From a virus (taxonomy: Duplodnaviria; Heunggongvirae; Uroviricota; Caudoviricetes), in IMG/VR virus record IMGVR_UViG_2645727604_000022: a stretch of 31,466 nt of DNA, one strand, 5' to 3'. Both the position numbers and the translations under genes were made by a program. Each line of letters begins with the position of its first letter. The stretch's first letter is position 1. Positions 5,323 through 23,577 of the stretch are shown piece after piece. The notes beneath the pieces were generated by a model, which saw nothing but the letters and a program-made list of their open reading frames with translations, ran no database searches and was not told the DNA's origin.

Positions 5323-5340
5323 TTATTATTATTCCTTTTA

Positions 5341-6065: not shown

Positions 6066-6255
6066 AAAGGAAAAAAGAGGTAATAATGACACTTAAGGAG
6101 GAGGAGAAGCGGGGAGCGGAGATTTTACTCCCCTTTAATGACAGGAAGAATTTTTAATATCGAACCAACAAAGGAAAAATAATCACCCTATATAATTATA
6201 TTAACATACAATAGATGAAATGTCAAGATATTTTACAACTTTTTTGTTGCTTTTT

Positions 6256-7006: not shown

Positions 7007-7135
7007 TTATTTTTCCTTTTCTTTTAAAGGAAAACACCCCGAAATATGTTTCTAACGTGAGAAAGAACAATAACCAATACATAGCTACTATCATAATAAT
7101 GTTTTCCTTTTATATTTTAATTACATAGAGAGATT

Positions 7136-7414
7136 TTAGAGAGTGGAATAGATGAATTCTATTTCTTTATCTAGTCTTTTGAGATTGAATGTAGAGAAAG
7201 ATAATTCTTTAATTTCTATAACACCGAAGTTTGATAGCTGTTTAAGCCAGAATTTTAAACCATCTTCAGAGCACCCTGCTCGATGTAACACATCGCTATA
7301 TTTTAGCGGTGTTGGCTTTCCTTTATAGAGGTAAGCAAGTGTTTCGTAGATGCGTTTTCCTGTGTCATTACACTGAATTCTGTCTACTTGATTTTTTACT
7401 AAATATTGAATCAT
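7136..7414 (-). CDS. Hypothetical protein (92 aa)
   Basis: ORF directly downstream of the HTH replication-like gene. Confidence 0.5.
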   Translation of the reverse strand: MIQYLVKNQVDRIQCNDTGKRIYETLAYLYKGKPTPLKYSDVLHRAGCSEDGLKFWLKQLSNFGVIEIKELSFSTFNLKRLDKEIEFIYSTL

Positions 7415-7425
7415 AACCCTCCTTA

Positions 7426-8115
7426 TTAAAATGGAATATCAAAGTCATCATACACATTTGGGTAATTCTTAGAAAAATATGCCTCAATACCATTTGGTAG
7501 CTTTAACCTGTGCTTATAGGCTAACGATGTTGCAAATTCTATAAATGATGCTCCTCCTGTTCTGGTATTCTTCTGCTTGATAATAAGAGATGCAAAATTC
7601 TCTAACACATCCTCCTCATTATCATTAGCTACCTTTTCACTTGATGAAACAGGTGTTTCTTCCGTCTCCCACGGCAAAGGCGCATCCCAATCATCAAGAA
7701 CATCAAAAGAAGGCTGTTTATGGCCTTTAGGTTGTTCCTGTGCTTCTTCTGCCTCAGAAAGATCAGAGAGTGATGATTCTCCTGGGGGAGTAATATGTGC
7801 ATCTGTGAGAGGGAGAGCATTGTAAATCAAAGATGAAATATACGGATCAGGATGTGGGGATGTTTCTAATAATCCCATCTCTTTAAGATCGTTTATCTTA
7901 CGTTTAATTGTTGACGCTGAAGACTTAAAAATCTTAGCTAATGTTTCGTGACTTTCATAACAATTAAGGTTGTTTTCCTGATAACTAAGGAATCGAAAAT
8001 AAAGCACAATATGTAATAGATCTAAATCTTTTCCTTGAGGGAATTTATCAGAATAAATCTTTGATACATTATCAAACGTGTCATAGTGTTTTGTAAAAGT
8101 TAGTTGATTAATCAT
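7426..8115 (-). CDS. Putative replication initiator / replisome-organizer-like HTH protein with SSB-like C-terminal tip (229 aa)
   Basis: HTH-like segment HETLAKIFKSSASTIKRKINDLKEMGLLE, acidic disordered middle, extreme C-terminus YDDFDIPF (E. coli SSB ends DFDDDIPF). Confidence 0.6.
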   Translation of the reverse strand: MINQLTFTKHYDTFDNVSKIYSDKFPQGKDLDLLHIVLYFRFLSYQENNLNCYESHETLAKIFKSSASTIKRKINDLKEMGLLETSPHPDPYISSLIYNALPLTDAHITPPGESSLSDLSEAEEAQEQPKGHKQPSFDVLDDWDAPLPWETEETPVSSSEKVANDNEEDVLENFASLIIKQKNTRTGGASFIEFATSLAYKHRLKLPNGIEAYFSKNYPNVYDDFDIPF

Positions 8116-8166
8116 TAAAAATCTCCTTATAAATCACGCTTAATGCGCTACTAAAGTGAATGAGGA

Positions 8167-8334
8167 TCACTTACCCTTTTTTTGTTTGATGTTCTCTGCT
8201 GCTTCAGTAATGATTTCTAACATCAAATCACTGACCATAATTTGCCTTTTCTTGGCTTCAGCAAATAAAACCTTGAAGATTTCAGGGTCAACGTGTAGGT
8301 AAGTGCGCGGAATTGGTTTCTTAGTTTCGCTCAT
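8167..8334 (-). CDS. Small ribbon-helix-helix-like (CopG/Arc-type) putative regulator, 55 aa; not in the ORF track
   Basis: Hand translation MSETKKPIPRTYLHVDPEIFKVLFAEAKKRQIMVSDLMLEIITEAAENIKQKKGK; SD AAGGAG 7 nt upstream of the ATG at 8334. Confidence 0.45.
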   Translation of the reverse strand: MSETKKPIPRTYLHVDPEIFKVLFAEAKKRQIMVSDLMLEIITEAAENIKQKKGK

Positions 8335-8353
8335 AGTTTTCTCCTTCTATTCT

Positions 8354-8542
8354 TTACTCTGTTTCAGATTCTTTTTCATTTTTTCTTAGTTCATCAATAA
8401 TCTTGAGTGCTTCATTGAAGCAAGCTGCTCGCTCTGGATAACCTCGACTCCTTGCCATATTACGATTCATTACTACTTGATGGCGTGTAAGCTCACCTTT
8501 TTTAAATGCCTCTACGACGTGTTTCGGTGTAAACCATTTCAT
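8354..8542 (-). CDS. Hypothetical small protein (62 aa), first gene of the minus-strand operon
   Basis: ORF with a candidate sigma70 promoter about 100 bp upstream. Confidence 0.45.
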   Translation of the reverse strand: MKWFTPKHVVEAFKKGELTRHQVVMNRNMARSRGYPERAACFNEALKIIDELRKNEKESETE

Positions 8543-8652
8543 AAAAAACTCCTTATTCAGTTAAAAGAAAAAACACCTTGCAAGCCTGACGGCTTCAAAG
8601 TGCATTGATTTTGATTATTTAGAGAAGAATGTTTTCTGTCCCTCTAATACCT

Positions 8653-8681
8653 ATTATTACATATAAAGAAACATTTGTCAA
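8653..8681 (-). promoter_or_regulatory. Candidate sigma70 promoter for the 8542-to-6256 operon
   Basis: On the minus strand TTGACA, 17-bp spacer, AATAAT. Confidence 0.3.
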
Positions 8682-9240
8682 TACCTTTTCACAAAAAATC
8701 TGATCTTTTTCATGCACTTACATTTTTTCTTAGCAATTCGTGCTCTCCTGTGTGGTGCTATTCTTCATTATCCGCTAAAACGCTCTAAAACGCGTTCTAA
8801 CGAGGTTTTGATAAAAGCAATACATTCCCTTATGTAATGGCTGTTTAGCTCGCCAGAGGCTTATTTAAGGGGCTTATTTTGTATTTGTTAGGTATATGAA
8901 AAGGTAATGGTAGATATAAGATAGAGAGTCACTTTATAAAACGCCCTGTAAAGCCCTGTAGTGAGTTTATTATATGTAGGCAATGCGTTTCCATTCCCTA
9001 CCCTGCTTAATGCTATTAGAGAAGCATTTAGACCCCTTATTTTTAATTAATTAAAGTATCCTCTATACATTCCTGTTATGAAACACCTCTGAATCCTTCA
9101 TAAAACACATTATGACGCAAAGAACACTTTTCTAAGGTGATTCCCTTCCTGAATGCTGTTTCTTGCGTCAAAGAGCTACACAGAGCTTATAAAGCTATTA
9201 TTAATAATAAAGTAGATAAGTAAGATAACTAAGATAGATA

Positions 9241-9660
9241 AGATTAATAAGATCAGAATTCTCTTTCGGTGTCGCCTCTGGCTTTTCCACCGAAAACAAT
9301 TACACAACTACAGAGAATAACGAGAGTTATTAAATGTAGAAAGTGGAATTGTATTGAGGCTTAGTGAAATTACACGAGGAAAGCAGAGTGTAATTGAGCT
9401 TTAGCCGCTCTCTCTTCGAGTAATTACACAACTACAGAATGTAGAAGTGGAATTAAGAGTTAGAGTTAACACATAAGCAATCAGTATGATTGGTTAGGTG
9501 ATTACTCTTCTGCGCACAGCGCAATAGATTTCTTCGTGGGCGTTATCGCCAACGAAGTTACACGAAGAAAGTAACGCTTTGCTTTCGGTGTGAGCGGAAC
9601 GGGCCAGCCACGAAGCCCAAAGGTAGCGGAGTAAGGCTGCTTGCCAGAGAGTGAAGCTAA
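9241..9660. other. Structured, relatively GC-richer non-coding block with nested hairpins and TGTGTAAT/AATTACACA motifs (possible regulatory RNA or protein-binding array)
   Basis: Hairpins TTTCGGTG...CACCGAAA, AATTACAC-N12-GTGTAATT, CTTCGTGGGCG-TTAT-CGCCAACGAAG; direct repeats AATTACACAACTACAGA at 9297 and 9422; no ORF of 60 aa or more. Confidence 0.3.
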
Positions 9661-9769
9661 CGCCGGAAGGCAAAAGATCATATATATATATAGATATAAA
9701 GAATATTATTATTATGATCTAATTAATAATCTAATATAGTTTTATTAATAGTCTTATTGTAGTTCACAG

Positions 9770-9845
9770 TGACCTACCCCCTAGCTCACTATGACCTACC
9801 CCCTAGCTCATAGTGAACTACCCCCTAGCTCATAGTGAACTACCG
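9770..9845. repeat. Iteron array: about 3.5 tandem copies of a 22-bp unit TGA(C/A)CTACCCCCTAGCTCA, next to an AT-rich tract (9660-9760); candidate replication origin
   Basis: Units start at 9770, 9792, 9814 and 9836 (22-bp period); the preceding tract is almost pure A/T including ATATATATATATAGATATAAAG. Confidence 0.6.
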
Positions 9846-10318
9846 TTACTACCAATCATCACATAGCACTCTGTGTAATGCCTTTCTATGTGTGTGCCAT
9901 AATCCCCTATATTCCCTGTGTAAATCATAGAATATCCCTAACTTATTCCTGTGTAATTCCATACTAAAAATTCAATGAAAAGTAGCTTAAAAGTGCAATT
10001 CTTACTTTCTTCACTTTTACATCACTTTCGCAAAGCCTTGTGTAGTGCGGCTTACAGAGCACCATCAGAAATTGTTGGCTAAAAATTGTTCTGCTTGTTT
10101 CTGAATGAGTTTTCTCGTTTGTGCAAATTTTAAAATTTATTTTGTTTTTACAGCCTTATTTCGTGTAATGCGTGGCATAGCAAGCCCTTTTCTTGTGTTG
10201 TCAAGACATTTGGCAACGTTCAAACATCTGTTTAGAAATGCCAAATTGTTGATCTAACAAATAAACCTGTATAAACAGAACACTATTTAATCTATTCCCC
10301 TGTGTATCCATTAGGCAT

Positions 10319-10426
10319 ACCAAATGAATACATCTAAATCGTGTAATATTCCGTACCTATAAGGCTTGAAACAGACCAAATGAATACGATATACTCATTT
10401 GCATTGGAGTAGTGCCAAATCGATAC
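10319..10426. promoter_or_regulatory. res-like recombination / autoregulatory site upstream of the serine recombinase gene
   Basis: Three direct copies of ACCAAATGAATAC-like 13-mer (10319, 10375, 10414); the middle one forms a 25-bp palindrome CAAATGAATACGATATACTCATTTG. Confidence 0.45.
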
Positions 10427-10440
10427 ATTAAGGGGATTTT

Positions 10441-10980
10441 ATGAGCAATATCGGTTATAAGCGTGTGAGCACTGTAGATCAGAACACTGATCGCCAGCTT
10501 GCAGGAGTAACGCTTGATAAAGTCTTTGAAGATAAGCTGTCAGGTAAAGACACTAACCGTCCAGGATTGCAGGCGTGTTTATCCTATCTGAGAGAAGGCG
10601 ACACCTTACACGTGCACTCTCTCGACCGTTTAGGGCGTAACACCTTAGACATTCTTGCCTTAGTGGAACAACTTAATAATCGAGGTGTAATTGTTCGATT
10701 TCATAAAGAAGGGATCATTGCAGACATTACAAGCGCGATGGGAAAAATGATGCTTACGATGTTGTCGGCAGTTGCAACGTGTGAACGTGAACTGATGTTA
10801 GAGCGTAAACGAGAAGCGCAAGCCGTCAATCCTACAAAGCGTGGTAATGGAAAAGCAGTAGATAGAGAAGGTATAAAGAAAGCCCTTTCTGATGGCCTGT
10901 CAGTGCGTAAAACCGCCGAGAGCTTTAATGTTGCTCCTTCAACGGTACAGCGAATTAAGAAGGAAGAAGAGGAGGCGTAA
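10441..10980 (+). CDS. Small serine recombinase (resolvase/invertase family), 179 aa
   Basis: N-terminus MSNIGYKRVSTVDQNTDRQ with catalytic-Ser context, FEDKLSGKDTNRPGL and GDTLHVHSLDRLGRN match the Hin/resolvase family pattern; SD AAGGGGA upstream. Confidence 0.9.
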   Translation: MSNIGYKRVSTVDQNTDRQLAGVTLDKVFEDKLSGKDTNRPGLQACLSYLREGDTLHVHSLDRLGRNTLDILALVEQLNNRGVIVRFHKEGIIADITSAMGKMMLTMLSAVATCERELMLERKREAQAVNPTKRGNGKAVDREGIKKALSDGLSVRKTAESFNVAPSTVQRIKKEEEEA

Positions 10981-10996
10981 TGCCTCCTTGATATTT
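10970..10996 (+). terminator. Putative intrinsic terminator overlapping the recombinase stop codon
   Basis: Hairpin AGGAGGC-GTAAT-GCCTCCT followed by a T-rich tract. Confidence 0.45.
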
Positions 10997-11421
10997 GGGG
11001 ATTCTGGATTTTCCAGATCGGGGGGCGCTGAAAATCGCGTTAAGCACCTCTCGCAATCTAGCCATAAGGGAGGGGATTCATATGTATTTAGATGTATTTA
11101 TAGCTATTTATGGCTATTTATGGCTATTTATTTTTTATTTATCTTTATTTAAAAATAACCTTATAAATCAATAAGATACAGAACTATCTGTTTATATTTT
11201 AATCAATTAAATCAAGTTTAATACCCTTAAATACCCTAAAAATAGCCTTAAATACCCCAATAATTAATTTTAAGGCTTTCCGTGTTCTCTTCTGCATTAT
11301 GAAAATGCAAAATAAGGCACAAAACAAGCTCACAGACGCATTAAACACACATCACCTATACACCCCTATACCAAGCAATGAAAACAGCGTTAGAATGCGT
11401 CCTGTTGCGTTCTGGAGATTT

Positions 11422-11580
11422 TCAGAAATCCTCTCTAAGCCATTTCAACTCACTAAGGAGTTTTCTTTCTTCGTTCTCTCTCTGTTTACGCTCTAACCAG
11501 GCTTTTCCTTCTGGCGTAGACAGGAACTTACGAGCGTGAATCTTGCGGTTATTACGTTTTATAGCTGCAATGTTTTTCAT
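11422..11580 (-). CDS. Possible small basic protein (52 aa); not in the ORF track
   Basis: Hand translation MKNIAAIKRNNRKIHARKFLSTPEGKAWLERKQRENEERKLLSELKWLREDF; AGAGG 6 nt before the ATG. Confidence 0.25.
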   Translation of the reverse strand: MKNIAAIKRNNRKIHARKFLSTPEGKAWLERKQRENEERKLLSELKWLREDF

Positions 11581-12183
11581 CGTGTGCCTCTGTATTCATA
11601 TGAAAATTAACAAGTTACATACTACACAGGGAGACTACGCATAAAACACAATACAAGTAAAGATACATTTTCAAGACAATAGGAGCCATAAAGCGCCTTT
11701 GATGGTTATACCAAAAAATAAGCGCCGTAGGCGTATCCACTAAAAAGGGCTTTTTCACAAAAGCTATGAAGTCTTAGCAGTTCTTCTCTTATCAGGCACC
11801 CGTTGTACTCCGGTGGACGAAACCGTGCTAGAGCTTGATTCTTTCCCGATCAAGTTAGGTTTTGAAGAGGTGGGCTTTAATCCACTATTGCACTTAAAAC
11901 TCTTCCCATCATTTAGCCTGTTTATCCTCTGCAACGTCTCACGACGTGTGGCATCATTGGACACCGCGCCAGGTGTGGAACATCTTGCTAAGAGTTTTGG
12001 TAGAAGGTTTAGAGACGGTGGCACGTCTTCCAGCTTCAAAGGAACTTGTTACGAGGTTGAGCCTGGGAACTACTCGCCCATACGTGTTACACTACCAAAG
12101 CCCATAACAACGTATAGGCGTTTGTAAGTGATAACAGAAGATACAATTTCTTAGAGAAGTTAAGCTAAGTTATTGATTTTCTT

Positions 12184-12202
12184 AATGGTGCCGATAATAG
12201 GA
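12184..12202. repeat. attL: 19-bp copy of the tRNA-Thr 3' end
   Basis: Identical to 30021-30039. Confidence 0.6.
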
Positions 12203-12263
12203 ACAATACACATAGGCGATAAGCTTTGTTTTTGTTGCCTTTTTTATTGTTCATTTTTTATAG

Positions 12264-12288
12264 ATACCCCCAAAAGTACCCCCATATC
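12264..12288. repeat. Tandem TACCCCCA half-site motif ATACCCCCAAAAGTACCCCCATATC, left-end copy (candidate integrase arm-type site)
   Basis: Near-identical copy (21 of 22 positions) at 29889-29913 in the same orientation. Confidence 0.4.
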
Positions 12289-12313
12289 TTTTTCCGCCCC
12301 TGAAATTTGGTTG

Positions 12314-12725
12314 TTATTCATACAGCATATCAGGCGGTAACGCTCTCCCTTTAACCCACTTATTGTATGATAGTGCTATCCCACAATAAGGAATCAGCCA
12401 GCCATGAGAATGACCAGCCGCAAAAAAGAGATACTTAGCTACTTTGAACCGGATAACCTCGAATGGGTGACTGGTGAGATTGGTGCGCCGCCCATAGTGG
12501 CGTGATTGCCGCGTTACCCATGCTTTCATCCTCACCCCATACGCGATACTCGCTACCTGGATCACCTTTACGCCCTTTCTCGAACATATACAGGTGTTCG
12601 TCATTCCAGCCAAAAGCTAACTGGATCACGGCATGAAGTTTACTAAAGGGGATTTGCTCTGGAACCAGCACACGCCGCCATATAGGTGGTTTGCTGTCTC
12701 GGATGGTTATCTTTAGCTGGTACAT
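12314..12725 (-). pseudogene. Frameshifted gene resembling the pRiA4b ORF-3-like family
   Basis: N-terminal frame MYQLKITIRDSKPPIWRRVLVP...AFGWNDEHLYMF continues in a second overlapping frame carrying YLFFAAGHSHGWLI; family assignment is from memory. Confidence 0.45.
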
Positions 12726-12845
12726 GCAAATCCTGAATAAATGCGAATCGGAAGGATAACGATACTGACGTACTCACAATTCTGTAAAGGTGAATAAAGG
12801 AAATTTGCTTAATACGCATAAGTTACATGTGGAATAATCCCATAT

Positions 12846-13031
12846 CTACCTGCGCGGCGCTGGCTTCTTCCACTGGTAGGCAGGTGCTCGCATCATTTCG
12901 CGGAACCTGTCGCGCCGGGCTATATCGGCATTAACTGATCGTTCTATCTCCCGTTGATCTGCCTGTGTAAGCTGATGGCCTCCGTGCTCAAGTTTGGCGA
13001 TGGTCAATAAGGCTATTTCGCGTGGTGTCAT
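12846..13031 (-). CDS. Hypothetical small protein (61 aa)
   Basis: ORF with SD AGAGGG 8 nt upstream. Confidence 0.35.
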   Translation of the reverse strand: MTPREIALLTIAKLEHGGHQLTQADQREIERSVNADIARRDRFREMMRAPAYQWKKPAPRR

Positions 13032-13328
13032 ACGTCATACCCTCTGGAAGAATGAAACACGCCCGGATTAAATTTCATTTTTCGCGGGTATAAAAAAACG
13101 ATGGGGCGGGCAGTCCCGGATAGTCAGGGCTGTAGAGATTTGACTACCCCCTCCCCACTGGATTCAGGTTACTGCTATTCCGTTAAGCGCTGCTTACGGG
13201 GATAGCTGCGTTGTGATTTTGACCATTCAGGTCGCCGCTATTTCCTCACCGATTGGGTGCTACGCGCGCGCGTACTTGTCCCGAAATACCAGAAACCGCC
13301 AGCCAGAGGATGATTTCCCTCTGGTGGT

Positions 13329-13610
13329 CTACCTTTGCCTCTTGCCGCCATTTAACCGGAAGGCGTTACCGTTCGGTTGCGCTATCCCCATGCGGTGTTG
13401 CGTTTCGGTAACAGCTTTATGCAGGTCGCCAAATTCCTCAACCTTCACGGGCGGGCGCTTCACGTTCTCCAGACACGTTTCACGGCGGCGCTTTATCCAT
13501 TCCCGATCATCGTCCTCGGTGCATAACAGCATGACTTCCATCCATCGTGCGGCAGCTCTCCGGTATAGCCCTTTTGACTCCAGCTCTTCAGCTTTCCTGT
13601 CCCTTATCAT
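13329..13610 (-). CDS. PerC-family-like small transcriptional regulator (93 aa)
   Basis: N-terminus MIRDRKAEELESKGLYRRAAARW resembles the PerC/Pch family as recalled; SD GAGAGG 7 nt upstream. Confidence 0.5.
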   Translation of the reverse strand: MIRDRKAEELESKGLYRRAAARWMEVMLLCTEDDDREWIKRRRETCLENVKRPPVKVEEFGDLHKAVTETQHRMGIAQPNGNAFRLNGGKRQR

Positions 13611-13640
13611 TTCTGCCTCTCAGATTATATAGATAAGCAA

Positions 13641-13770
13641 AAAGGTGTTGGTTCAGTTGGTTCAGTTGGTTCAATTTGTAAAGATTGTTGTTTTTATTGT
13701 GTTTTTTCTGAAATATTGAACCAACATCAACTCATTTTGAACCAACACAGCCCAGCTCTGAACCAACAAC
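13641..13770. repeat. Iteron cluster IR-L: three tight GTTGGTTCA repeats then three spaced TGAACCAAC repeats
   Basis: Reverse complement matches cluster 20679-20799, including a 43-bp perfect terminal match. Confidence 0.65.
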
Positions 13771-13869
13771 ACAGCGATAGATTTGTGATTGGTCCGTTAT
13801 TTTCTGGCTGATATTTGAGCGTATAACAGTGTTATACAGTGGTATACTGTATGGATATTACTCACTGAT

Positions 13870-14325
13870 ATGGTCTTTGCAATGAGCAAATCTAATCTGG
13901 TCGCGTTCCGCATCCCATCTGAATTGCAGGATGAGTTTAATCGGTCTGTTCTCGCTTCTGGAGGAGATAAAACCTCCTGGCTTGTTGATGCGATTCGCAT
14001 GAAGCTGGGGCAGCCGGAAAAGTCTATTGATTCACGAATGCTTGGGCTGGTGGAGCGCATGGAAAAAGCCGCTGCGTCGCTTATTGCCGGAAAGCCGAAC
14101 ATCCCACCAAAACCATATAACGAAACGGCAGTTATAAAGATCATTGCCGATACCATCCAACAGGGATTTGATAATGGGCGTGTGATAGCTGAACGGATCA
14201 ATGAAGCAGGCTATCAAACAAAAGCTGGTAAAGCGTGGGATAAAGATATTTACAGCGCGTGGAAGCGTCAGGGAAGCAATGCTGAAAAGCTAAAAGCAGT
14301 GATTGATTGTAAGGTCAGCGTATAA
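13870..14325 (+). CDS. Mnt/Arc-like ribbon-helix-helix domain protein with C-terminal extension (151 aa)
   Basis: RHH-like N-terminus SNLVAFRIPSELQDEFNRSVLASGGDKTSWLVDAIRMKLG; no clear SD. Confidence 0.55.
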   Translation: MVFAMSKSNLVAFRIPSELQDEFNRSVLASGGDKTSWLVDAIRMKLGQPEKSIDSRMLGLVERMEKAAASLIAGKPNIPPKPYNETAVIKIIADTIQQGFDNGRVIAERINEAGYQTKAGKAWDKDIYSAWKRQGSNAEKLKAVIDCKVSV

Positions 14326-14404
14326 ACATGAGTGCCCATTGGAAAGTTGCTTGGGCCAATACCTTTATACACCAGCAGGTAGTGACGATAGGTGAGGATC
14401 AGAT

Positions 14405-14626
14405 ATGAAAGGCAGAACGCCACACATTGAACATCAAGCCAACCACTTCCCTGATGTTCGCAATGAGATGATTGCCATTCGCGGTGATATGCACGGATTG
14501 GAGCGTCGAATTATTGATAAGATTGATGAAAATAGAGATAAGGCCAGTGAAAATCAAAAGTGGATCATCGGCCTGTTGATTTTATCAATTCTTATCCCGC
14601 TACTTATCGCATTGGTCACAAAATGA
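14405..14626 (+). CDS. Small protein with C-terminal transmembrane anchor (73 aa)
   Basis: SD GAGGA 9 nt upstream; C-terminus KWIIGLLILSILIPLLIALVTK. Confidence 0.5.
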   Translation: MKGRTPHIEHQANHFPDVRNEMIAIRGDMHGLERRIIDKIDENRDKASENQKWIIGLLILSILIPLLIALVTK

Positions 14627-15146
14627 ATATCCAATGTGTATGCTGTCGATGCTACGCGCGCGTACTTGTCGCAAAATATCAGGCAAAGGCCAGATTCAGA
14701 AAGTCGTGATAATCACCAGCACAACATGAGATGTCATGTAACGCGATTGATCACACCAGATACATGTGATGGTGTACCCGCATAAAACATCGTCATAGCG
14801 CGTCCTGTGCGCACATACGCCGATAATCAACACATCACCACCACTCTGTCTCGTGTAGAGAACAGTTTCATGGTATCCCCCGCCATCGTGTGCGTACTGG
14901 TCGGACGTGGTTGCAAAATTTTTGCAACTGATACCCCTCGCGCGCGTACTGGTCACGAAATTGGTGTTTTGCTGTGGCAGTGATATCAGAAAAATCTTCC
15001 TGTTTCACATAAAGCGGATATGCGCGTACTGTAACGACCCCATCAACGGGATCGGATTTGAAATCCTGACCCAAGCTATGTACCAAATGCCATGTCTTGG
15101 ATATATGATGATTGCCATTCTAAACAAAGCTAAAGGGAGGGTTGGT

Positions 15147-15503
15147 GTGAGGGGGCAGGCAGTTATAATTATTTTGTTGGGTTTAATTGTCGCAAAGTTA
15201 TACCCGACTTTATCGATGGTGTTTTTTGCCATTATTGGCGCAGCCATCTTTACTTATATCATTAAACATACCGCCTTGTGGTTCTATAAAATTGATATAG
15301 TTCAGAAGTTTGTACGTCCTGTGTCGATGTTATTACTAGCATTAATACCAATTGGTGTTGCTTATGTAATTGATGTTTTTTACCCTTCGGACACTGAAAG
15401 GTGGTTGATAGTTTTGTATTGTTATATTGGTGTAGCTCTCTTTTGTGGATTTCATTGGTGTTTCGAAAAGATCAATGACTCTATTTCAAAGAATAAAGAT
15501 TGA
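15147..15503 (+). CDS. AT-rich small integral membrane protein with four predicted TM helices; candidate immunity / superinfection-exclusion protein (ORF track frame opens at 14907; start here assigned to GTG 15147)
   Basis: SD GGAGGG 6 nt before GTG; four hydrophobic helices; about 37% GC on sampled lines versus about 63% in the adjacent 705-aa gene. Confidence 0.6.
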   Translation: MRGQAVIIILLGLIVAKLYPTLSMVFFAIIGAAIFTYIIKHTALWFYKIDIVQKFVRPVSMLLLALIPIGVAYVIDVFYPSDTERWLIVLYCYIGVALFCGFHWCFEKINDSISKNKD

Positions 15504-15517
15504 GGCCATCCGTGGCC
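15504..15517. terminator. Short hairpin between the convergent membrane-protein and 705-aa genes
   Basis: GGCCA-TCCG-TGGCC hairpin; weak flanking U-runs. Confidence 0.3.
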
Positions 15518-15522
15518 ATTCA

Positions 15523-17640
15523 CTAGTCATTATCTGGATCATTAGATAGCCAAGTAATGATGCCCAGTCTGGCGATGGTCCGTTTTTCCTGTTCAGGAAG
15601 AGAGTTAAAAAAACTCTTCCATTGAGGGGAGCGCCTGATACGTGAATCAACAATGTGCCCAGGCGCTTTTCCGTGTAGATTTTTTACTGCGCTCTGGAAG
15701 GCTGGCGAGGCAATTAATTTATCCGCAGCATCAGCCGCCCCTGCTCCACCAGCTAATCGAGCTTTACTCGCCAATCTTGCTCCAATATCAGCCCCAGCAA
15801 TGGCTCCAAGCGATCCAAAATGAGCGCCTACCATCGTGCCTATTTTTTGAATGTGTTTTGCTGCTAGTTCGTATGGAGCTGTTACCCGATTAAATCTGTT
15901 TACAAACTCATTCAGCTTACCAGTAGATATTTCATGCGCTTTAGCATTTTTTATTGCTCTGGCAACTTTGTATACATCATATAGTCCGCTCATTGTTTCT
16001 TTTGGCAAATGTTCAGCCAAAGTCTTTAGCTGTCCACTGTGTTGCAAGTTTTGCCACCAATCTGCAAAGCCAGATGGATTAAAGTCGGCCCCACGCTTCC
16101 CAGAGGAAAGCATATCTCTTAATGCTGTTCCTACTAGCTCCCTTCGCAATGTTCTTGATGGAGTATTTTGCATAATCTCACGAAACCCTCTCGCATCACC
16201 TTTTGCCATAGATTGAAGAGAATTCGTTACTTTATACGCTATATCCCCATTAAGTGTTTTCCCGCGAAGATTTACCATTTGCCTTTCTAAGTTTTTTCTC
16301 ATAGCTACAAGGCGTTGTGCGACTTCGAAATCTCGCAAGTATCCAGTATTGGATAAGACAGATTTTTGGTCTTCAGCTAAAGCTCCATATAGTCTTGATA
16401 GCGCTTCTTTATCAGCATCTTTGTATGGCCCCTGCTTTTTATTTAGGGCATCACCAACTAAACGCCTTTGCCTGTTTAAATTTGCATACGTTAGGATTCT
16501 ATCTGGGCCGGGGTTTATTGCTGTAAAAACTCGCTTTTCTATTGGGTCAAGATTATCCCACCCTCCTAAATCATCAGCGATTTTTTCCAGCATAGTGCTT
16601 GTGTTATTTGCTTCGACTTTTGTTCTTGGTGATAGAGCGGAATCAACACGTTTATATAACTGATCACTACGGTTTTTTAGTGCTTCCATTCTACTATTTA
16701 TCTGATAAATATATTTTTCGCTCATAGCTAACGCATCTGGCGCACCAGCAACATCATCGATTATCTTGCCAGCACTAGAGGCTAATTCGCTTATTGCTTT
16801 ATCTTCTTGAGCTTTTAACGCTGATCCTGTCCGTGACTTTAGGGCTTGCTCTACAGCTTGGTATTGCTCATTTCCTGATAAATGAGAAGGAAGAACTGAA
16901 TCAACATGAAGCCTATTTGCAGCCTCAACAATTTCTTTCTGAGGTTTTAGATCTAGCCCTTCAAGCGAAGAGGCAAGATTTGGGTTGCCTTGTGCAGATA
17001 ACTTACGAATTTTCTCTTCGGCAGGAGTAATCCCCTCAATATCTGGAATCGAAGAAACATTCTTCTTGGTTAATTTCCCAGCTATTTTATTAATTGCAGG
17101 GCCAGCAAGTTCGGCTACAGGGCCAGCCACAGCGCCAATAGCAGCGCCGGAAGCAACATCGCTATTTGTTCCATTGGCTACAATAGCCCCTTCTCCAGCA
17201 CCAAGCCCTGCGGCGGCAGCCAGTCTTGCCGCCCCTTTGGGAACCTGAGAAATAATCCCACCACCACTAACAAATGGCGCTGCTTGTCCAACGAACTCAC
17301 CAACATCTTGTGCGGTTGATGGTTTTGCCGCTAACTTCTGCTGTAGAGACTGAATTGCGGCTTGCTCTTCTGGTGTCATATCCTGAAACAGGCCAACACC
17401 TTTACCAACATCCATCAATCCACTGAGAACGCCATACATAAAACGGTCGAAACCGTTAGCATTATTAACAACATTTTCCTGTCTGGAATTTTCCTCTGGT
17501 GAAACCAAAGGTGATTGCTGCTGTTCTGGTTGGGCATCAAGCACAAAACCATCAGGAAGCTGTGAACTATCAGGAAACTGTGAGTTATCAGGTTGTTCAT
17601 CGAGCACAAAACCTTCCGGTAAGATTACATTTGCTGCCAT
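15523..17640 (-). CDS. Hypothetical large Gly/Ala-rich coiled-coil protein (705 aa), last gene of the LexA-box operon
   Basis: N-terminal repeats PEGFVLDEQP / PDGFVLDAQP, long Gly/Ala zipper segments, no P-loop or nuclease motif found. Confidence 0.75.
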   Translation of the reverse strand: MAANVILPEGFVLDEQPDNSQFPDSSQLPDGFVLDAQPEQQQSPLVSPEENSRQENVVNNANGFDRFMYGVLSGLMDVGKGVGLFQDMTPEEQAAIQSLQQKLAAKPSTAQDVGEFVGQAAPFVSGGGIISQVPKGAARLAAAAGLGAGEGAIVANGTNSDVASGAAIGAVAGPVAELAGPAINKIAGKLTKKNVSSIPDIEGITPAEEKIRKLSAQGNPNLASSLEGLDLKPQKEIVEAANRLHVDSVLPSHLSGNEQYQAVEQALKSRTGSALKAQEDKAISELASSAGKIIDDVAGAPDALAMSEKYIYQINSRMEALKNRSDQLYKRVDSALSPRTKVEANNTSTMLEKIADDLGGWDNLDPIEKRVFTAINPGPDRILTYANLNRQRRLVGDALNKKQGPYKDADKEALSRLYGALAEDQKSVLSNTGYLRDFEVAQRLVAMRKNLERQMVNLRGKTLNGDIAYKVTNSLQSMAKGDARGFREIMQNTPSRTLRRELVGTALRDMLSSGKRGADFNPSGFADWWQNLQHSGQLKTLAEHLPKETMSGLYDVYKVARAIKNAKAHEISTGKLNEFVNRFNRVTAPYELAAKHIQKIGTMVGAHFGSLGAIAGADIGARLASKARLAGGAGAADAADKLIASPAFQSAVKNLHGKAPGHIVDSRIRRSPQWKSFFNSLPEQEKRTIARLGIITWLSNDPDND

Positions 17641-18923
17641 TTTCCGTTCCTGTAAATGATTTTCTGACCAGTTTTAGGGTTGGTTGCCGTTGCGCCTTCT
17701 GATATTCCTCCGGTTGCCGCTTTTGCCTGTCCAGTGCCAGCCTGTGATGTAGGCTGCCCGGAAACATCGTCAAATAGCTTCGCTTTCCTTCTTTCAAGGC
17801 TTTTTCTTAGCCCCTGAGGAATAGTTTCTCCATATGTATCGAGATACTCGTCAACCTGCTGGTTAAACTGCTGCCCCATAGCATTGGCGTTGATTTTTGC
17901 GGCGTTAACAATGTTATCCTTTGCCTCCTGCGACAGGCCGTTTCCAGCATTAAGCTGGTCTATGTATCCTTTGATTTGTCCCCATATGCCATCAGACCGC
18001 ATTACCTGAACCTGTTCGCCTTCACGAACGACTGACTGCGGGTCAAGAGATTTCATGTAGTTGAAGATAATCCCAAGTTGGGCAGCGCCAGTATTTACCT
18101 TGCTAAGGGCTTGCAGAGAGTTTGCCGCCGCTCTGACAGAGTTATAATTTTTGCCAAAATTGGTAATGTCAGAATTTAATCCCTTAATTAAGTCTGCTGA
18201 CGGCTTACCTTTTTGCCCCAGCTCCATTAGCTTCAATCCCATCTCATCTGAGTGAATTTGTGCTCGCTGAGCCCTGTCTAGTTGAGCGTTCTGGATATTT
18301 GCCCATCCTCTCGCGTTCTCCATGTCAGCCTGACGCATACTTTCATCCAGTCGCCCTTGCTCAAGTCGACGACCTTCCATTTGATCTTTGATATCGAAAT
18401 ACTTCTCATGACCGAGAGAAAACAGTGCCATACTACCAGCAAGCCGCTGGAACCCCTGTGGATCATTAACATGCATTTCGGCAACAGACTCAGGAGAAAT
18501 TCCCAAGCGACGCATTTCATCTTCGTTATCTGCTATGAATTTTCCAAATGCCCCAGTTCCGAGCGAAGATGCGATTTGAGCACTAGTCGCAAGATGACCA
18601 ATAGAATTTCTCTGGTCGTCATCAATAAAGCCCATCCCTTTCTGAACGCTTTCAAATTCTTCTGGATACTCAGAAATAAGACTGCGCATTTTGTTTCTGT
18701 CTCCAGACTCAAAAGCCCCGGCATATGCTTTCTGAAACTCTGCTTTACGCTGTTGTTGACGTGCCTGCTGATTAATCTCAGCAACGCCTCTTAGCCCCTG
18801 TAGCGCCATTAAACCTACGTTTGGCTGCTGCTGATACTGCACAGGCTGAGGAACGGAAGAACGAGGAGCATTATCATTTTGCGGTGCCATGCTAGGCAGC
18901 CCGCCAAGTTGCCATGTCGCCAT
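17625..18923 (-). CDS. Hypothetical coiled-coil protein (432 aa)
   Basis: Q-rich N-terminus; overlaps neighbouring genes by a few nt (translational coupling). Confidence 0.75.
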   Translation of the reverse strand: MATWQLGGLPSMAPQNDNAPRSSVPQPVQYQQQPNVGLMALQGLRGVAEINQQARQQQRKAEFQKAYAGAFESGDRNKMRSLISEYPEEFESVQKGMGFIDDDQRNSIGHLATSAQIASSLGTGAFGKFIADNEDEMRRLGISPESVAEMHVNDPQGFQRLAGSMALFSLGHEKYFDIKDQMEGRRLEQGRLDESMRQADMENARGWANIQNAQLDRAQRAQIHSDEMGLKLMELGQKGKPSADLIKGLNSDITNFGKNYNSVRAAANSLQALSKVNTGAAQLGIIFNYMKSLDPQSVVREGEQVQVMRSDGIWGQIKGYIDQLNAGNGLSQEAKDNIVNAAKINANAMGQQFNQQVDEYLDTYGETIPQGLRKSLERRKAKLFDDVSGQPTSQAGTGQAKAATGGISEGATATNPKTGQKIIYRNGKWQQM

Positions 18924-19600
18924 TAGAATCCAAGCCCCCCAACAAGACCAATAAGCCCACCACCAATAGCGCCGGCCGCAGTTCCTATTCCAGGAACAAC
19001 GGAACCAAGTTGCGCACCCGCTAAAGCGCCTGATGCTGCCCCACCAATACCACGCGCAAGACTGGATGGCTGCTGCGCCTGACCTGCACGAATAGCGCCA
19101 AGCCCCTGCAAGAGTTGTCCGGTATTATTGGCGTAGTTTTGCCCTGCCGTTGCCTGCCCTGATGCCGCATTCATCCCGACATTTAGCAGGTTTCCATAAT
19201 TTTGCATTTGCCCACTAAGCCAATTGTTATAAAGCATGGGCGCAATGGAAGATAACTGGTTACTGGTAGCTGTTGAGCCAAGCCCCCCGGTAGCTTCTGC
19301 TGAGACAAGGTTCTGATAACGGGCCTGATCTGCCTGTGTTTTATATAAACCAGAACCAAAGAAATCATTCGCGGCTTTATTCTGCCCTTCCAGAGTCATC
19401 AGTCCTTGTAGTTGTTGTAAAGCAGGCAATCCGACTTCTGCATACGGCTTGAGATTATTCATCACCGTATTCCACTGCTCGCGCTGCAAATCAATTGCCT
19501 GCTGCTGGGCCTTCGCCTGAGCTTTAGAGGCACCACCATCACCGCCTTTTTCGTATACGGCACGATTGAGATGTTTATGAGCTATATGGGTAATTAACAT
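18923..19600 (-). CDS. Hypothetical protein with extremely Gly-rich hydrophobic C-terminus (225 aa)
   Basis: C-terminus GIGGAASGALAGAQLGSVVPGIGTAAGAIGGGLIGLVGGLGF. Confidence 0.7.
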   Translation of the reverse strand: MLITHIAHKHLNRAVYEKGGDGGASKAQAKAQQQAIDLQREQWNTVMNNLKPYAEVGLPALQQLQGLMTLEGQNKAANDFFGSGLYKTQADQARYQNLVSAEATGGLGSTATSNQLSSIAPMLYNNWLSGQMQNYGNLLNVGMNAASGQATAGQNYANNTGQLLQGLGAIRAGQAQQPSSLARGIGGAASGALAGAQLGSVVPGIGTAAGAIGGGLIGLVGGLGF

Positions 19601-20055
19601 TCGCTGAATTCCTTATATTGTTGCCGAGTTAACTGATAAAGCGTTACGCCGACGGGTTTACCACATCTGATATAAGCATCATCAAGGTGACCAACACGGG
19701 TAGCGCCAAGCAAACGGATAATTGCCCGTCCGTATTTCGTGGTGTCAGGAACCATAGTGATGCTGTTAAGGAATGGTGAGTTTTCGAGAAGCCATTTGCA
19801 GAATAATCGATGTCCTTGCAGTGCATATTCACCACGGAATCCGGGGTCGTACACCGCATGGCATTCAACAACGCTATGCCAGAAGTTACGCACTTCATGA
19901 ACGCCAGCCAGCACTAATCCTTCGTAGATGCCGAGATATACCGCATCAGGCTTGATGTAGTACGTGTGCCCCGGCTCAACAATATTTTCGGTATTGCCTG
20001 GCTCGTTAAGAAAGGCCTGTAATCGCACAGGGTTATCAATAAATTTTAGTTCCAT
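19594..20055 (-). CDS. Hypothetical protein (153 aa)
   Basis: ORF coupled to downstream genes; no diagnostic motif (GNAT motif looked for and not found). Confidence 0.7.
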   Translation of the reverse strand: MELKFIDNPVRLQAFLNEPGNTENIVEPGHTYYIKPDAVYLGIYEGLVLAGVHEVRNFWHSVVECHAVYDPGFRGEYALQGHRLFCKWLLENSPFLNSITMVPDTTKYGRAIIRLLGATRVGHLDDAYIRCGKPVGVTLYQLTRQQYKEFSEC

Positions 20056-20071
20056 GCGATGCCATCCATTT

Positions 20072-20233
20072 TCACATACAGCCTGCCAGCGCCTTATCTA
20101 TTAACCCTCGTGCAATTTCATGCAGAGTTGGCGCTACTCCAATTCCTGATTTTTTACGCTGCTCTTCCTGAATTTTCTTTATCGCTTCCATTTGCTTCTC
20201 ACTTATCAATACCGGCTTTACTGAAATAGCCAT
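20072..20233 (-). CDS. Small RHH-like putative regulator (53 aa), first gene of the operon; not in the ORF track
   Basis: Hand translation MAISVKPVLISEKQMEAIKKIQEEQRKKSGIGVAPTLHEIARGLIDKALAGCM; GGGGG 5 nt before ATG. Confidence 0.45.
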   Translation of the reverse strand: MAISVKPVLISEKQMEAIKKIQEEQRKKSGIGVAPTLHEIARGLIDKALAGCM

Positions 20234-20248
20234 AACGCCCCCTTAGAA

Positions 20249-20264
20249 CTGTATAAAACAACAG
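20249..20264. promoter_or_regulatory. LexA-type SOS box CTGTATAAAACAACAG, immediately downstream of a perfect TATAAT (20267-20272, minus strand)
   Basis: Matches CTGT-N8-ACAG with an AT-rich spacer; sits 16-31 bp upstream of the RHH start codon; only such box found in the window. Confidence 0.45.
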
Positions 20265-20678
20265 TTATTATAGTTTCACAAATCGCAATATTCATCATCG
20301 TAATTGCAAAATATGAAACAAATAGCACAAAAAAATGCCACCGCTCAGTAGCTGGTGGCATCGTTCTGTGTGTCAGGTTTTGACAGGTTTTTTATGGACT
20401 CTAAAAACTATATTTATGGTGTCGCATTACTCTTCACGGCAGGCGCTTTTCAGTTCTGCCCTTGCTTCTGGCTCCATTGGTAATTTGATTCGCGATCAGC
20501 TATGCGGATGGTTTGCTGAACAGGCATAACAACTTCTCAGAGGCTGTTTTCTGAACTACGAAAATTTCGTAGTGCTCACTTTCAAAAACGTCACGCCCTT
20601 GTACACAGGATTTTACGAAAGTCTCGTAAAACACTCTCTGATGCCAGCCAGGTGTTGTGCGCATCAATTCAGTCACAT

Positions 20679-20799
20679 TGTGTTGGTTCAAAATACCGTG
20701 TTGTTGGTTCAGTGTTGGTTCAATAAAAAGAATAAAATCCTTATAAAACAATACTCTTTACAAATTGAACCAACTGAACCAACTGAACCAACACCTTTT
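20679..20799. repeat. Iteron cluster IR-R: inverted partner of 13641-13770, 19 bp downstream of the primase-helicase stop
   Basis: Three spaced GTTGGTTCA then TGAACCAACTGAACCAACTGAACCAAC. Confidence 0.65.
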
Positions 20800-20817
20800 C
20801 TACGCACATGAAGAAGC

Positions 20818-23577
20818 TCATTCTTCAGATGAGTTATAATCTCCTGGCTGGTAATTGAGTACATAAACGTTTATTTGTCGTCCCTGAATACGTGGTGATT
20901 TTCTTTGGTATCCACGACCGCTGTTTGGTGGGGTTAGCATCCCGGCTTTTTTCAACACTTCAGCAAACTGTTTTGCGTTGAAACCACATGCGATCTCCTT
21001 TTCAAATGTGGCCGGGAATGTGTAGAAAATCATTGGGCTTTCGTCATGTTCTCCACGCTGACGGTATCCGGCTAAATCTTTGATGGGCAAATCTGCCGGG
21101 CTGTATGGAAATGGTGCAAAACGGCTAAGCCCATAGGCATTAAGAAATGCCTCCGTTTGTTCAATAATCTGCTGATGCTCTTTGTTACCTGTGCCGAACT
21201 CGCGCAACCATGCGTTATAGCTGTGCTGTATCGCATCACGGCATGTCTGAGCATCCCAGCCTGTTACAACCTCGCCTAACAACAATGCGGCCTCCAGAAT
21301 GGCAAATCGCGCGGCTACACGGTGAACCTGCTCACCATAATCGGATGGGATCAGGCTTCTCCATCTGCTTTCGCAGTCACGAACGGTTTTAATAGCCTGT
21401 TGCTGGTGGTCTGCCAGCCATTTAATCCACTCACGCCCGGACGCGCCGTGGTGATGCTGGTAAGCGTCTTTCAGTGCGTCTGCGTGCTGTTTTCCGTTCT
21501 GGTAATCGTGAAAGCGTACTGCTTTACTCAACGGAATATTCAGCAGTCGCACCAGTTGCCCGGCTTTGGTTTTTCGCCCGGAAGTAGCGATAAATGTTTC
21601 TAAATCCATTTCTCCGGTGCTGATTGCCACTGTACGCCAGCGTTTTAGATCCCGGTTTCCACCATCTTTAGCGCCTTGCAGTTTCCCTACACCGTTAAAT
21701 AACGCATAGGCAGACTGTGAGACGCTGACAGGATCAGCGCCCTGACCAACTTCATCAAGCGGCATTAGTCCGTCATTGTGGGCGGCGGCCTCATTTGCCA
21801 GCCCCAGCGCGGTTCCGTACCACGTCAGCCGCAGTAAATCAGGGTTGCCGTATAAGCTGCTCGCCACGTTTGCCGTGGTGGTCTTACCTGCGCTCGACTG
21901 CTCATAGAAATGAATGCCGAACCCGTCAGCGCCCACCAGCCCAATCAATGGCGCTGCCAGTGCTGCGCCGATCCCGGTCATCATTGAATAGTTACCAAAG
22001 GACAGACGCGCCACGTTATCACGCCAGCTTTTCTCGCTCCCTGAGACGGTATATCCGGCTGCGGCTGAGCTTCTCCCGCTGAACAGCACAGGATTTTCAG
22101 GTGTTCCGATGATTTCCCCATCAGGCATGATGTACGCTCCGCATTGCCAGCCAGTGGCATGAGCAACACGCCACAATTCACGAGAGCCACTGCGTTGTAG
22201 CCAGTCTGCCAGTATTGCTCTGAGGCTGCTTTTGGTCGTGACATTTACCCCACCAGCTTTAAGTGTGCGCCATCCTTCACGTTCACCAATATCAGCCAGT
22301 GGAATGGCAGCGGTTGTCGGCGTTTCAGAACCAAACGACAGCCAGCGAAGAATGAGATACTGGTCTTTATCGTCTCTGCCAGTACCGATAACGCTTAACG
22401 GAGAACATAACCAGCTTTCGTTATTGATGATTTCTCCACTCTGGCTGTCAGCTCTCGGAGATACCCAATAAATACCATCCTCGCGGCTTTCTATTCTTGG
22501 TTTCAGTGGATCGGTATCCATAACCTTAAAATCGCTTCCCTCAATGGTCTGTGGCTCCTGTTTCACGCCATTACCCTGTGGTTGGTACATTGACTTATTG
22601 AACGCTTCTGTGGCGCATTTAATGCCGTGTTTTTGGTGGTAATCATTCCAGTCTGCTTTGTGATCTGTCGGGGGTAATGCCACCCATCCAGAAACAGATA
22701 AAGCTGCTTTTTCTGCTGCTATTCTCCCCGTGTTTTGTCTTCCTTCGCTGTGGTCGTTATCCGCAGCAATGATGATTTGTGCTGAAGGAAATTTATCCCG
22801 CAGTACCTGGGCGACATATAACAGGTTCCCGGCATCAATCGCCGCCACTGTCAGCGCCTCTGGACGCATTAAATGGGCAGATAATGCCGTTGCCAGCCCT
22901 TCTGCGATTAAGATGCTCTGTGTTGTTTCTGGTGCGTTTATGGCGTGATATGCCCCTCGCTTTGCTGAACCTGTCAGGAGTCTTTTTTCACCATGTGAGG
23001 TAATAGTCTGTGCTGCTGTTACTGCGCCGGATTTATCCACCAGCGCCAGCAACAGAGATCCATCGGGCAACACGGGGAATGTAAAATCACCTACCCCTTT
23101 CGCAACCAGATAATCAGATTTGCCGTTTACAGCCTTTCTGCGCATGTCATCAAACTGACGGGAAAACGTATCCCGTCTTTGTTGTTCGTCCTTCTCTGCC
23201 CTTTTCAGGCGCTCCTGTTCGCGTCGCTGGCGCTCGGTTTCCAGTTGTTCCCGTTTCTGGCTGGTGGCTTCTGGTGTTTCCGTTGTCCGGTAATCAATAC
23301 CCAGAACATCAGCGGCAAGAAGCGCCGCCTCTGTTGTGTCGCAGTTATTTACGCGTTTAATTAAATCCAGCCCATCACCAGCGCCGCACTGATTACAGAT
23401 GAAGCTACCGCGCCCGTTGTCATCGAACCGGAATCGATCTTTGCCCCCACATGCAGGGCAGGGAGCATGACGGCGCGGAGAGTCAGGGACATTTATGTTC
23501 AGGCAGCCCAGCACATGAGGCCAGTTGTTTTCAGACGCACTGATAACCTGACGGATAAGATCAATGTTTCGCATCAC
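20818..23577 (-). CDS. P4 alpha-like primase-helicase (919 aa)
   Basis: N-terminal zinc-ribbon CPACGG...CNQCG, P-loop YEQSSAGKTTT; size and context typical of satellite/island replication proteins. Confidence 0.85.
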   Translation of the reverse strand: MMRNIDLIRQVISASENNWPHVLGCLNINVPDSPRRHAPCPACGGKDRFRFDDNGRGSFICNQCGAGDGLDLIKRVNNCDTTEAALLAADVLGIDYRTTETPEATSQKREQLETERQRREQERLKRAEKDEQQRRDTFSRQFDDMRRKAVNGKSDYLVAKGVGDFTFPVLPDGSLLLALVDKSGAVTAAQTITSHGEKRLLTGSAKRGAYHAINAPETTQSILIAEGLATALSAHLMRPEALTVAAIDAGNLLYVAQVLRDKFPSAQIIIAADNDHSEGRQNTGRIAAEKAALSVSGWVALPPTDHKADWNDYHQKHGIKCATEAFNKSMYQPQGNGVKQEPQTIEGSDFKVMDTDPLKPRIESREDGIYWVSPRADSQSGEIINNESWLCSPLSVIGTGRDDKDQYLILRWLSFGSETPTTAAIPLADIGEREGWRTLKAGGVNVTTKSSLRAILADWLQRSGSRELWRVAHATGWQCGAYIMPDGEIIGTPENPVLFSGRSSAAAGYTVSGSEKSWRDNVARLSFGNYSMMTGIGAALAAPLIGLVGADGFGIHFYEQSSAGKTTTANVASSLYGNPDLLRLTWYGTALGLANEAAAHNDGLMPLDEVGQGADPVSVSQSAYALFNGVGKLQGAKDGGNRDLKRWRTVAISTGEMDLETFIATSGRKTKAGQLVRLLNIPLSKAVRFHDYQNGKQHADALKDAYQHHHGASGREWIKWLADHQQQAIKTVRDCESRWRSLIPSDYGEQVHRVAARFAILEAALLLGEVVTGWDAQTCRDAIQHSYNAWLREFGTGNKEHQQIIEQTEAFLNAYGLSRFAPFPYSPADLPIKDLAGYRQRGEHDESPMIFYTFPATFEKEIACGFNAKQFAEVLKKAGMLTPPNSGRGYQRKSPRIQGRQINVYVLNYQPGDYNSSEE

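Follow-up and report, generated by a model that had tools for sequence, protein, structure and literature searches.

A repeat array matching the helper small-terminase gene in an EcCIMP1-family island of Escherichia coli: candidate mimics of a phage packaging site

Introduction

The 31,466-nucleotide IMG/VR virus record IMGVR_UViG_2645727604_000022, referred to below as the window over its whole length, carries five copies (c1–c5) of a short repeat within a chromosomal island of E. coli, and the question raised by this locus is what these copies are for. A preliminary description, made from the letters of the window, took them for a palindromic, Z-DNA-like motif and proposed that they may be operator sites for a local regulator or remnants of a small repetitive element. 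We put at about even the chance that they are an array of mimics of a phage packaging (pac) site, which would let the terminase of a helper phage package the island. The main support is the near-identity of three of the copies to one stretch of the small-terminase gene (terS) of that helper.

The repeats and their host island

The 13-mer GCGCGTACTKGTC was found on the plus strand without mismatches at positions 13268, 14658, and 14942 and with one mismatch at 14890; elsewhere in the window there was a single extra match, at 25218, with two mismatches. In 100 dinucleotide shuffles of the window, five matches were never reached (mean 0.72). The copies are one-way direct repeats with the core GCGTACTKGTC and not a family of palindromes (Table 1). 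In the longer form common to them, GCGTACTKGTC(NC)GAAAT, the minus strand reads ATTTCG-N-GACMAGTACGCG. All five copies face the same way: the motif lies on the plus strand, so that the terS sense is on the minus strand, which is also the orientation of the main operon of the island. About 45 bp (TGCTACGCGCGCG(CG)TACTTGTCSCRAAATAYCAG..GCCAG) are common to c1 and c2, and 23 bp of these are also found in c4; c3 and c4 are spaced by 52 bp, and c4 and c5 by 80 bp.

The five copies lie at the places given in the preliminary description and are confined to this locus. The claim that each consists of the palindrome TACGCGCGCGTA followed by CTTGTC did not hold. Only c2 has the exact 12-nt palindrome; in c1 it is lengthened by one CG to 14 nt, and c3–c5 lack the left half. 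Within this window, CTTGTC follows the motif in c1 and c2 alone, its place being taken by CTGGTC in c3 and c4 and by CTGTAA in c5. A Z-DNA-like character is thus not a family trait, since the alternating CG run, 14 nt long in c1 and 12 nt long in c2, is shorter in c4 and broken in c3 and c5. The description was accurate in that the long copies c1 and c2 flank the PerC-like gene, an iteron cluster (named IR-L), the Mnt-like gene, and a 73-aa gene, and in that c3–c5 lie upstream of a plus-strand membrane-protein gene.

Judging by its integration site, attachment (att) core, gene set, and gene order, the island bearing the repeats is a member of the EcCIMP1 family of phage-inducible chromosomal islands (PICIs), and long stretches of its DNA are 87–99% identical to other islands of this family. 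The window spans the proA-thrW-yagU hotspot of E. coli, the island being integrated at tRNA-Thr between proA and yagU and delimited by direct repeats of the att core TCCTATTATC, 17.8 kb apart. Its annotation was drawn from homologous loci. Namely, the minus strand carries int, alpA, antA, the genes for DUF4222, Ash, and a DUF927 primase, and P22-like gp14/7/20/16 ejection genes; these are followed by a small plus-strand membrane-protein gene, the repeat block, variable cargo, iterons, and the PerC-like gene. No capsid or terminase gene is present in the island, a check of its open reading frames (ORFs) revealed no TerS-like product, and no gene for the redirecting protein Rpp or for capsid remodelling was recognized in it.

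Excision and specific transduction of EcCIMP1, which was described as a PICI in 2025, take place only with the P22-like phage Kapi1 as helper; helper-dependent excision and transfer were shown in strain MP1 only (PMC11773190). It, too, has neither capsid nor terminase genes, and its mechanism of packaging was considered undetermined by the authors of that study (PMC11773190).

Table 1. Location of the repeats and of other features in the 31,466-nucleotide window.
Feature	Position	Strand	Sequence	Remarks
EcCIMP1-family PICI bearing the repeats	12203-30039	minus		Assigned by att cores, tRNA-Thr, and gene set
att core	12193-12202 and 30030-30039		TCCTATTATC	Direct repeats
tRNA-Thr	30023-30098			
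Copy c1, long	13258-13305	minus	minus strand ..TATTTCGGGACAAGTACGCGCGCGCGTAGCA	Candidate pac mimic
Copy c2, long	14650-14697	minus	minus strand ..GATATTTTGCGACAAGTACGCGCGCGTAGCA	Candidate pac mimic
Copy c3, degenerate	14883-14902	minus	GTGCGTACTGGTC / GACCAGTACGCACAC	
Copy c4, medium	14935-14966	minus	minus strand ..CCAATTTCGTGACCAGTACGCGCGCGAGG	Candidate pac mimic
Copy c5, weakest, degenerate	15020-15037	minus	ATGCGCGTACTGTAAC / GTTACAGTACGCGCAT	
Conserved non-coding block with c2–c5	14646-15150			Right edge at ribosome-binding site and GTG start of variable plus-strand cargo gene
Segment of 166 bp with c1	13161-13326			Bounded by CTGG; present or absent between strains
Palindrome between c3 and c4	14908-14929		GTTGCAAAA-T-TTTTGCAAC	Arms conserved; centre varies by 1-2 nt among strains
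Sigma-70-like promoter between c2 and c3	14737-14709	minus		
Rejected protein-coding reading	14696-15117	minus		123-aa hypothetical protein annotated over c3–c5 in some RefSeq genomes
Cargo slot with the plus-strand membrane-protein gene	15128-15503	plus		
Ejection genes of gp14/gp7/gp20/gp16 type	15523-20055	minus		
Iteron cluster between perC and the Mnt-like gene	13647-13775		GTTGGTTCA x3, then inverted TGAACCAAC x3	IR-L of the preliminary description
Iteron cluster just downstream of the DUF927 primase gene	20680-20794		GTTGGTTCA x3, then inverted TGAACCAAC x3	
Short motif in the c1 segment	13229-13238		AGGTCGCCGC	
pRiA4b ORF-3 family gene	12314-12725			Two overlapping ORFs
Second island, abutting the PICI	1-12202			
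Integrase gene of the second island	1-1335			
Major capsid gene of the second island	4294-5322			
Serine recombinase gene of the second island	10441-10980			

Match to the helper small-terminase gene

The 39-kb genome of Kapi1 (MT813197; L159, L numbers denoting the loci compared here) was scanned as that of the helper; its terS gene is located at 18704-19132. With up to one mismatch allowed, the 13-mer matched Kapi1 in terS alone, on the strand opposite to the plus strand of the window. A weight matrix made from just the five window copies also gave its best score in the sense strand of terS (18.0, against 12.1 for the next site). Sf6-type terS contains one clear copy of the motif; a second candidate inside the gene (nt 90-115) was only the sixth-best match in Kapi1 and was not used.

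The sense strand of Kapi1 terS reads GCATGAGGATTTTCGCGACAAGTACGCGAAGG. The corresponding minus-strand sequences of the island are GATATTTTGCGACAAGTACGCGCGCG in c2, GGTATTTCGGGACAAGTACGCGCGCG in c1, and CCAATTTCGTGACCAGTACGCGCGCG in c4, and the c4 of EcCIMP1 reads AATTTTGAGACAAGTACGCG. Each copy was aligned locally with terS and the score compared with 200 shuffles, none of which reached the score of any copy named here; all significant copies fell on terS nt 170-189. The matches comprised 17/18 positions for c1 (terS nt 172-189; z 7.7), 19/20 for c2 (nt 170-189, with one gap; z 7.7), and 16/18 for c4 (z 5.6). For c4 of EcCIMP1 and a second natural terS allele, 19/20 positions were identical (z 10.7).

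Kapi1 TerS is identical to gp1 of phage Sf6 (PDB 3HEF), and the sequence GACAAGTACGCGAA is invariant across 56 distinct Sf6-type terS alleles. The pac site of Sf6 is reportedly situated in that portion of gene 1 which codes for the DNA-binding domain. Kapi1 terS nt 169-196 correspond to nt 163-190 of Sf6 gene 1. The motif codes for Sf6 residues F56-A61; among these is K59, and DNA binding by TerS is lowered when this residue is mutated (PMC9611059). The pac site of P22-like phages is located inside terS (PMC8022706, PMC9611059). From the position of the match we infer that the stretch of terS nt 170-189 may be the Sf6-type pac. Conservation at synonymous sites in the 56 alleles was also considered as an independent locator of pac and was uninformative, much of the 3' half of the gene being equally invariant.

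A possible packaging signal borrowed from the helper

The island needs a signal accepted by the Kapi1 terminase and has neither TerS nor a known redirecting protein; several 20-mers that derive from terS and share one orientation would be the simplest such signal. Since an asymmetric pac site requires a single orientation, the uniform direction of the five copies counts for this interpretation. Induction of the helper would lead to excision and replication of the island, and helper TerS would then recognize at least one copy on island concatemers. TerL would cut near the recognized copy, and headful packaging would proceed one way along the minus strand of the window, leaving the block in the direction of perC, att, and int; the 40-kb Kapi1 head would hold about two lengths of the island. 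Binding by TerS, cleavage by TerL, and an effect of the copies on transfer are all predictions.

Our confidence falls a little short of even for the fuller proposal that an array of helper pac recognition copies, taken from the terS coding region, packages a satellite without a terminase, a redirecting protein, or cos. If so, this array would pin the Sf6-type pac to about 20 bp, ATTT(T)CG-N-GACAAGTACGCG, corresponding to codons 55-61 of gene 1.

Several observations weigh against the packaging interpretation. Transduction of EcCIMP1 by Kapi1 is very low (PMC11773190), and an efficient pac site would give more. When a wider, 34-nt matrix was used, 39 of 1000 Markov-shuffled genomes reached the observed score. 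Copies c3 and c5 are not significantly similar to terS when taken alone, c5 sharing 8 nt with it. The invariant stretch sits in the generally less variable 3' half of terS. The match also keeps the codon register (island, AKHQ-FRDKYA; TerS, AKHEDFRDKYA), as inert captured debris might. Finally, the 93-99% identity of the block is no higher than that of neighbouring genes and gives no proof of constraint.

Distribution among genomes and phages

Of 5426 complete E. coli genomes, 559 contained the repeats according to a 50-nt motif probe, which matched at one to five places in each and always in this island family; the plasmids of these genomes gave no match. The 470-bp block with c2–c5 occurred in 545 genomes, the best match being 90-100% identical in 537 of 546 records. 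A 181-bp segment with c1 was present in 253 genomes, once in each, and adjoined perC in 29 of 30 cases among the matches listed. One genome per species was scanned across prokaryotes, which yielded 22 single matches in unrelated genomes, a number at chance level, and none in the species representatives of Enterobacteriaceae. The block displayed no blastn homology to known phages and is carried by no sequenced phage.

The genome-wide count called for in the preliminary description thus argues against a generic repetitive element of the REP (repetitive extragenic palindromic) type, for which many unrelated loci would be expected. The copies do have the look of a duplicated fragment, as the idea of remnants implied, but their source is apparently the helper small-terminase gene and not a mobile repeat. 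Of the 27 genomes listed with Sf6-type terS, at least 3 also carried the island, where by our own estimate about 0.65 would be expected; this co-occurrence is a weak signal from a rough sample of clonal genomes.

Alternative explanations

The best-surviving alternative, which we regard as unlikely, is that the copies are functionless relics of a terS-type fragment that was captured once beside the ejection-gene module and multiplied by slippage or illegitimate recombination, perhaps favoured by the CG run. The codon register of the terS match fits this idea, and so do the decay of c3 and c5 (many strains have a G>A variant of c3, GCATAC) and the unequal CG runs of c1 and c2. Copy c1 is dispensable, being missing in island L002, and the island family is young, so that conservation says little. 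However, a single captured fragment should give a single copy, whereas three to five copies of the same 20-45 bp are present here, with unrelated spacers and in one orientation. All five copies are kept by EcCIMP1, a functional island, and the piece that was copied coincides with the part of terS expected to bear pac.

Operator or activator sites for a DNA-binding protein of the island or helper, such as the PerC-like protein, would govern the variable cargo genes that flank the block; we consider this improbable. The block ends exactly at the ribosome-binding site and GTG start of variable plus-strand genes, a sigma-70-like minus-strand promoter is located between c2 and c3, and a conserved palindrome, which may be a dimer-binding site, separates c3 from c4. 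The perC gene was found in 6 of 7 tested island loci that reach that part of the island. The more specific suggestion of operators for the Mnt-like protein has to be abandoned, because EcCIMP1 (L240) retains c1–c5 without the Mnt-like gene; the repeats are likewise kept without it in L123, L151, and L157. EcCIMP1 also lacks the plus-strand membrane-protein gene and its ribosome-binding site, which weakens the view of the block as a mere leader of that gene and speaks against regulatory sites in general. Moreover, c1 lies downstream of perC and not at a promoter, and the promoter scan was not enriched (5 found, 6.0 expected from shuffles). The terS match would be left unexplained by regulation.

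We give slight credence to the copies as recombination junctions, at which the exchange of modules and deletions within the cargo region would be marked or stimulated. In islands of the window type, the block begins on its left 5 bp from c2, homology to L060 begins about 10 bp before c3, a deletion in L125 joins the DUF4222 gene to c5, and c1 is contained in a 166-bp indel. About three of seven junctions fall within 15 bp of a copy, a marginal excess (P ~0.06, our own estimate). No dedicated recombinase co-occurs with the repeats, since the serine recombinase gene of the window belongs to the neighbouring island and the annotation of the corresponding MP1 island lists none. Terminase breaks at pac sites would yield the same pattern.

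Very improbable, finally, is an antisense role, in which plus-strand transcripts through the block, with as many as four stretches able to pair with the terS mRNA of the helper, would damp terminase synthesis: the plus-strand copies are antisense to terS over 14-19 nt and a plus-strand cargo gene follows, but EcCIMP1, which has no plus-strand gene, does not reduce Kapi1 titres (PMC11773190), no plus-strand promoter was found upstream of c2, the block gives no RNA-structure signal, and c1 stands in another transcription context.

Other readings were rejected. A minus-strand gene over c3–c5 is contradicted by ORF calls that hop between frames and vary in length, and by 1-nt indels; the 'homologues' of the 123-aa product are fragments of different length that read the same DNA in different frames, and no Pfam or PHROG family was assigned to this ORF. 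Predicted RNA folding of the block was no better than that of shuffled sequences (z -0.6 on both strands), and the sole Rfam match was a meaningless miRNA model over the iterons. Neither sigma-70 promoters nor terminators were enriched over shuffles. The spacing and symmetry of the copies do not, by eye, fit a sigma-54 site, Hin/Gin hix sites, or resolvase res sites. Replication iterons were dismissed since those of the island have a different sequence, GTTGGTTCA. A remnant of a DUF4222 paralogue was suggested by the fusion protein P0029 and proved to be a deletion that joins the island DUF4222 gene to c5. This large deletion, in a metagenomic island (L125, 6001-6285), removed the region from ash to the block.

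The non-coding block and neighbouring cargo

Sixteen distinct versions of the block share 93-99% identity, differ by 1-nt indels between strains, and have sharp edges. The right edge coincides exactly with the ribosome-binding site AAAGGGAGGG and the GTG at 15148, a start common to unrelated plus-strand genes in the window, L002, L123, and L057. This GTG is probably the real start of the membrane-protein gene, and the ATG at about 15108, which matches the RefSeq annotation of the gene in strain H10407, is probably a wrong one. The plus-strand slot is a cargo slot and occupies the position of sieA in P22.

The cargo to the left of the block is variable. In the window it comprises the 73-aa holin/XhlA-like gene and a 151-aa gene, the Mnt-like one, whose ribbon-helix-helix (RHH) assignment rests on weak matches and is weakly supported; an Abi gene is found there in L002 and alpA_1 in EcCIMP1. 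Short repeats, GGTTCGCAG(T/G)... and CCTGCA.., occur in EcCIMP1-type cargo at this place (L123, 3560-3700; L154, 13580-13700) and are absent from the window. Where the c1 segment is missing, in L002, its flanks are joined as ..CCCCGCTGG|TGGTCTACC. The segment also contains AGGTCGCCGC, which equals the complement of the lambda cohesive end over 10 of its 12 bases; by chance, about 0.06 such matches per window are expected.

The two iteron clusters of the island have the same layout, and L123 keeps the iterons although the flanking sequence differs. Their paired arrangement resembles the primase-binding sites of the P4 ori and crr.

Parts of the satellite's own ejection genes are 81-89% identical at the DNA level to Kapi1 27948-30916. 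The alleles of these genes vary greatly from one island to another, a sign that they are probably often exchanged with helper phages. In the IMG/VR contig 3300045988_004969 (L154), Kapi1-like genes from terS to gp20 are joined near position 10230 to island sequence that contains a gp16-like gene, the repeat block, and alpA_1 and is 99.9% identical to island L151 from 10230 on; this contig is either chimeric through misassembly or the product of genuine recombination between phage and island. No relatives of the 705-aa gp16-like protein were found in other species.

Positions 1-12202 of the window belong to a second, separate island with genes for an integrase, a major capsid protein, a 'baseplate' protein, and a serine recombinase. 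Strain MP1 has a different island (vat, MarR) in this place. The pRiA4b ORF-3 family gene encodes 180 aa and is intact in H10407 and MP1; its split into two ORFs in the window is probably due to a frameshift.

Comparison with known packaging signals

Close parallels are the pac sites of P22 (22 bp, asymmetric, inside gene 3, i.e. terS) and Sf6 (inside gene 1). The island copies are likewise short and asymmetric and reproduce 16-19 of 18-20 nt of a coding stretch of Sf6-type terS, the phage again being P22-like and packaging by the headful. They differ in that they are carried by a satellite, away from any terS gene, and number three to five. Their motif is unrelated in sequence to the P22 pac, AGAGAAGATTTATCTGAAGTCG, and does not belong to the P22 pac family.

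Satellites that carry a packaging signal of their helper include P4 with its cos site, cos-type Staphylococcus aureus pathogenicity islands (SaPIs) such as SaPIbov5, and cos-type PICIs of E. coli. One E. coli PICI, EcCICFT073, uses the redirecting protein Rpp (cited in PMC11773190). As in P4, SaPIbov5, and EcCICFT073, a helper-dependent island would here offer a DNA signal accepted by the helper terminase. Those systems employ cos, together with Rpp in the case of EcCICFT073, whereas here the signal would be a multi-copy pac mimic directed at a headful P22-like helper, apparently without an accessory protein.

Several repeated boxes over a few hundred bp are also found in the pac region of SPP1, where the TerS-binding boxes pacL and pacR flank the cut; that phage belongs to another group, its sequence is unrelated, and Sf6-type terS itself holds a single clear copy. 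Pseudo-pac sites of the chromosome, which start headful packaging outside phage DNA during generalized transduction by P22, are pac-like by chance. The island copies, by contrast, resemble the phage sequence much more closely, occur several times within a dedicated satellite, and are conserved. Finally, REP elements and bacterial interspersed mosaic elements (BIMEs) have in common with c1 and c2 a GC-rich palindrome; the island copies differ from them in being direct repeats without genome-wide spread, in which the palindrome is not common to all.

Significance for EcCIMP1-type islands

Islands of the EcCIMP1 type are common, the block being present in about 10% of complete E. coli genomes, and carry superinfection-exclusion, Abi, and PerC-like genes. 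Should the packaging interpretation be wrong, the repeats would be a minor, locus-specific curiosity. This interpretation makes packaging of the islands directly testable, because it offers a candidate signal of about 20 bp in three to five copies. Sequence-specific DNA binding by Sf6 TerS is hard to show in vitro (PMC9611059), and the repeats, if they are pac mimics, would indicate independently which DNA element the TerS ring of this phage recognizes. In that case they would also represent an example of a satellite copying a signal from the coding sequence of its helper, and no packaging signal would have been described before them for satellites of headful phages of the P22-like type.

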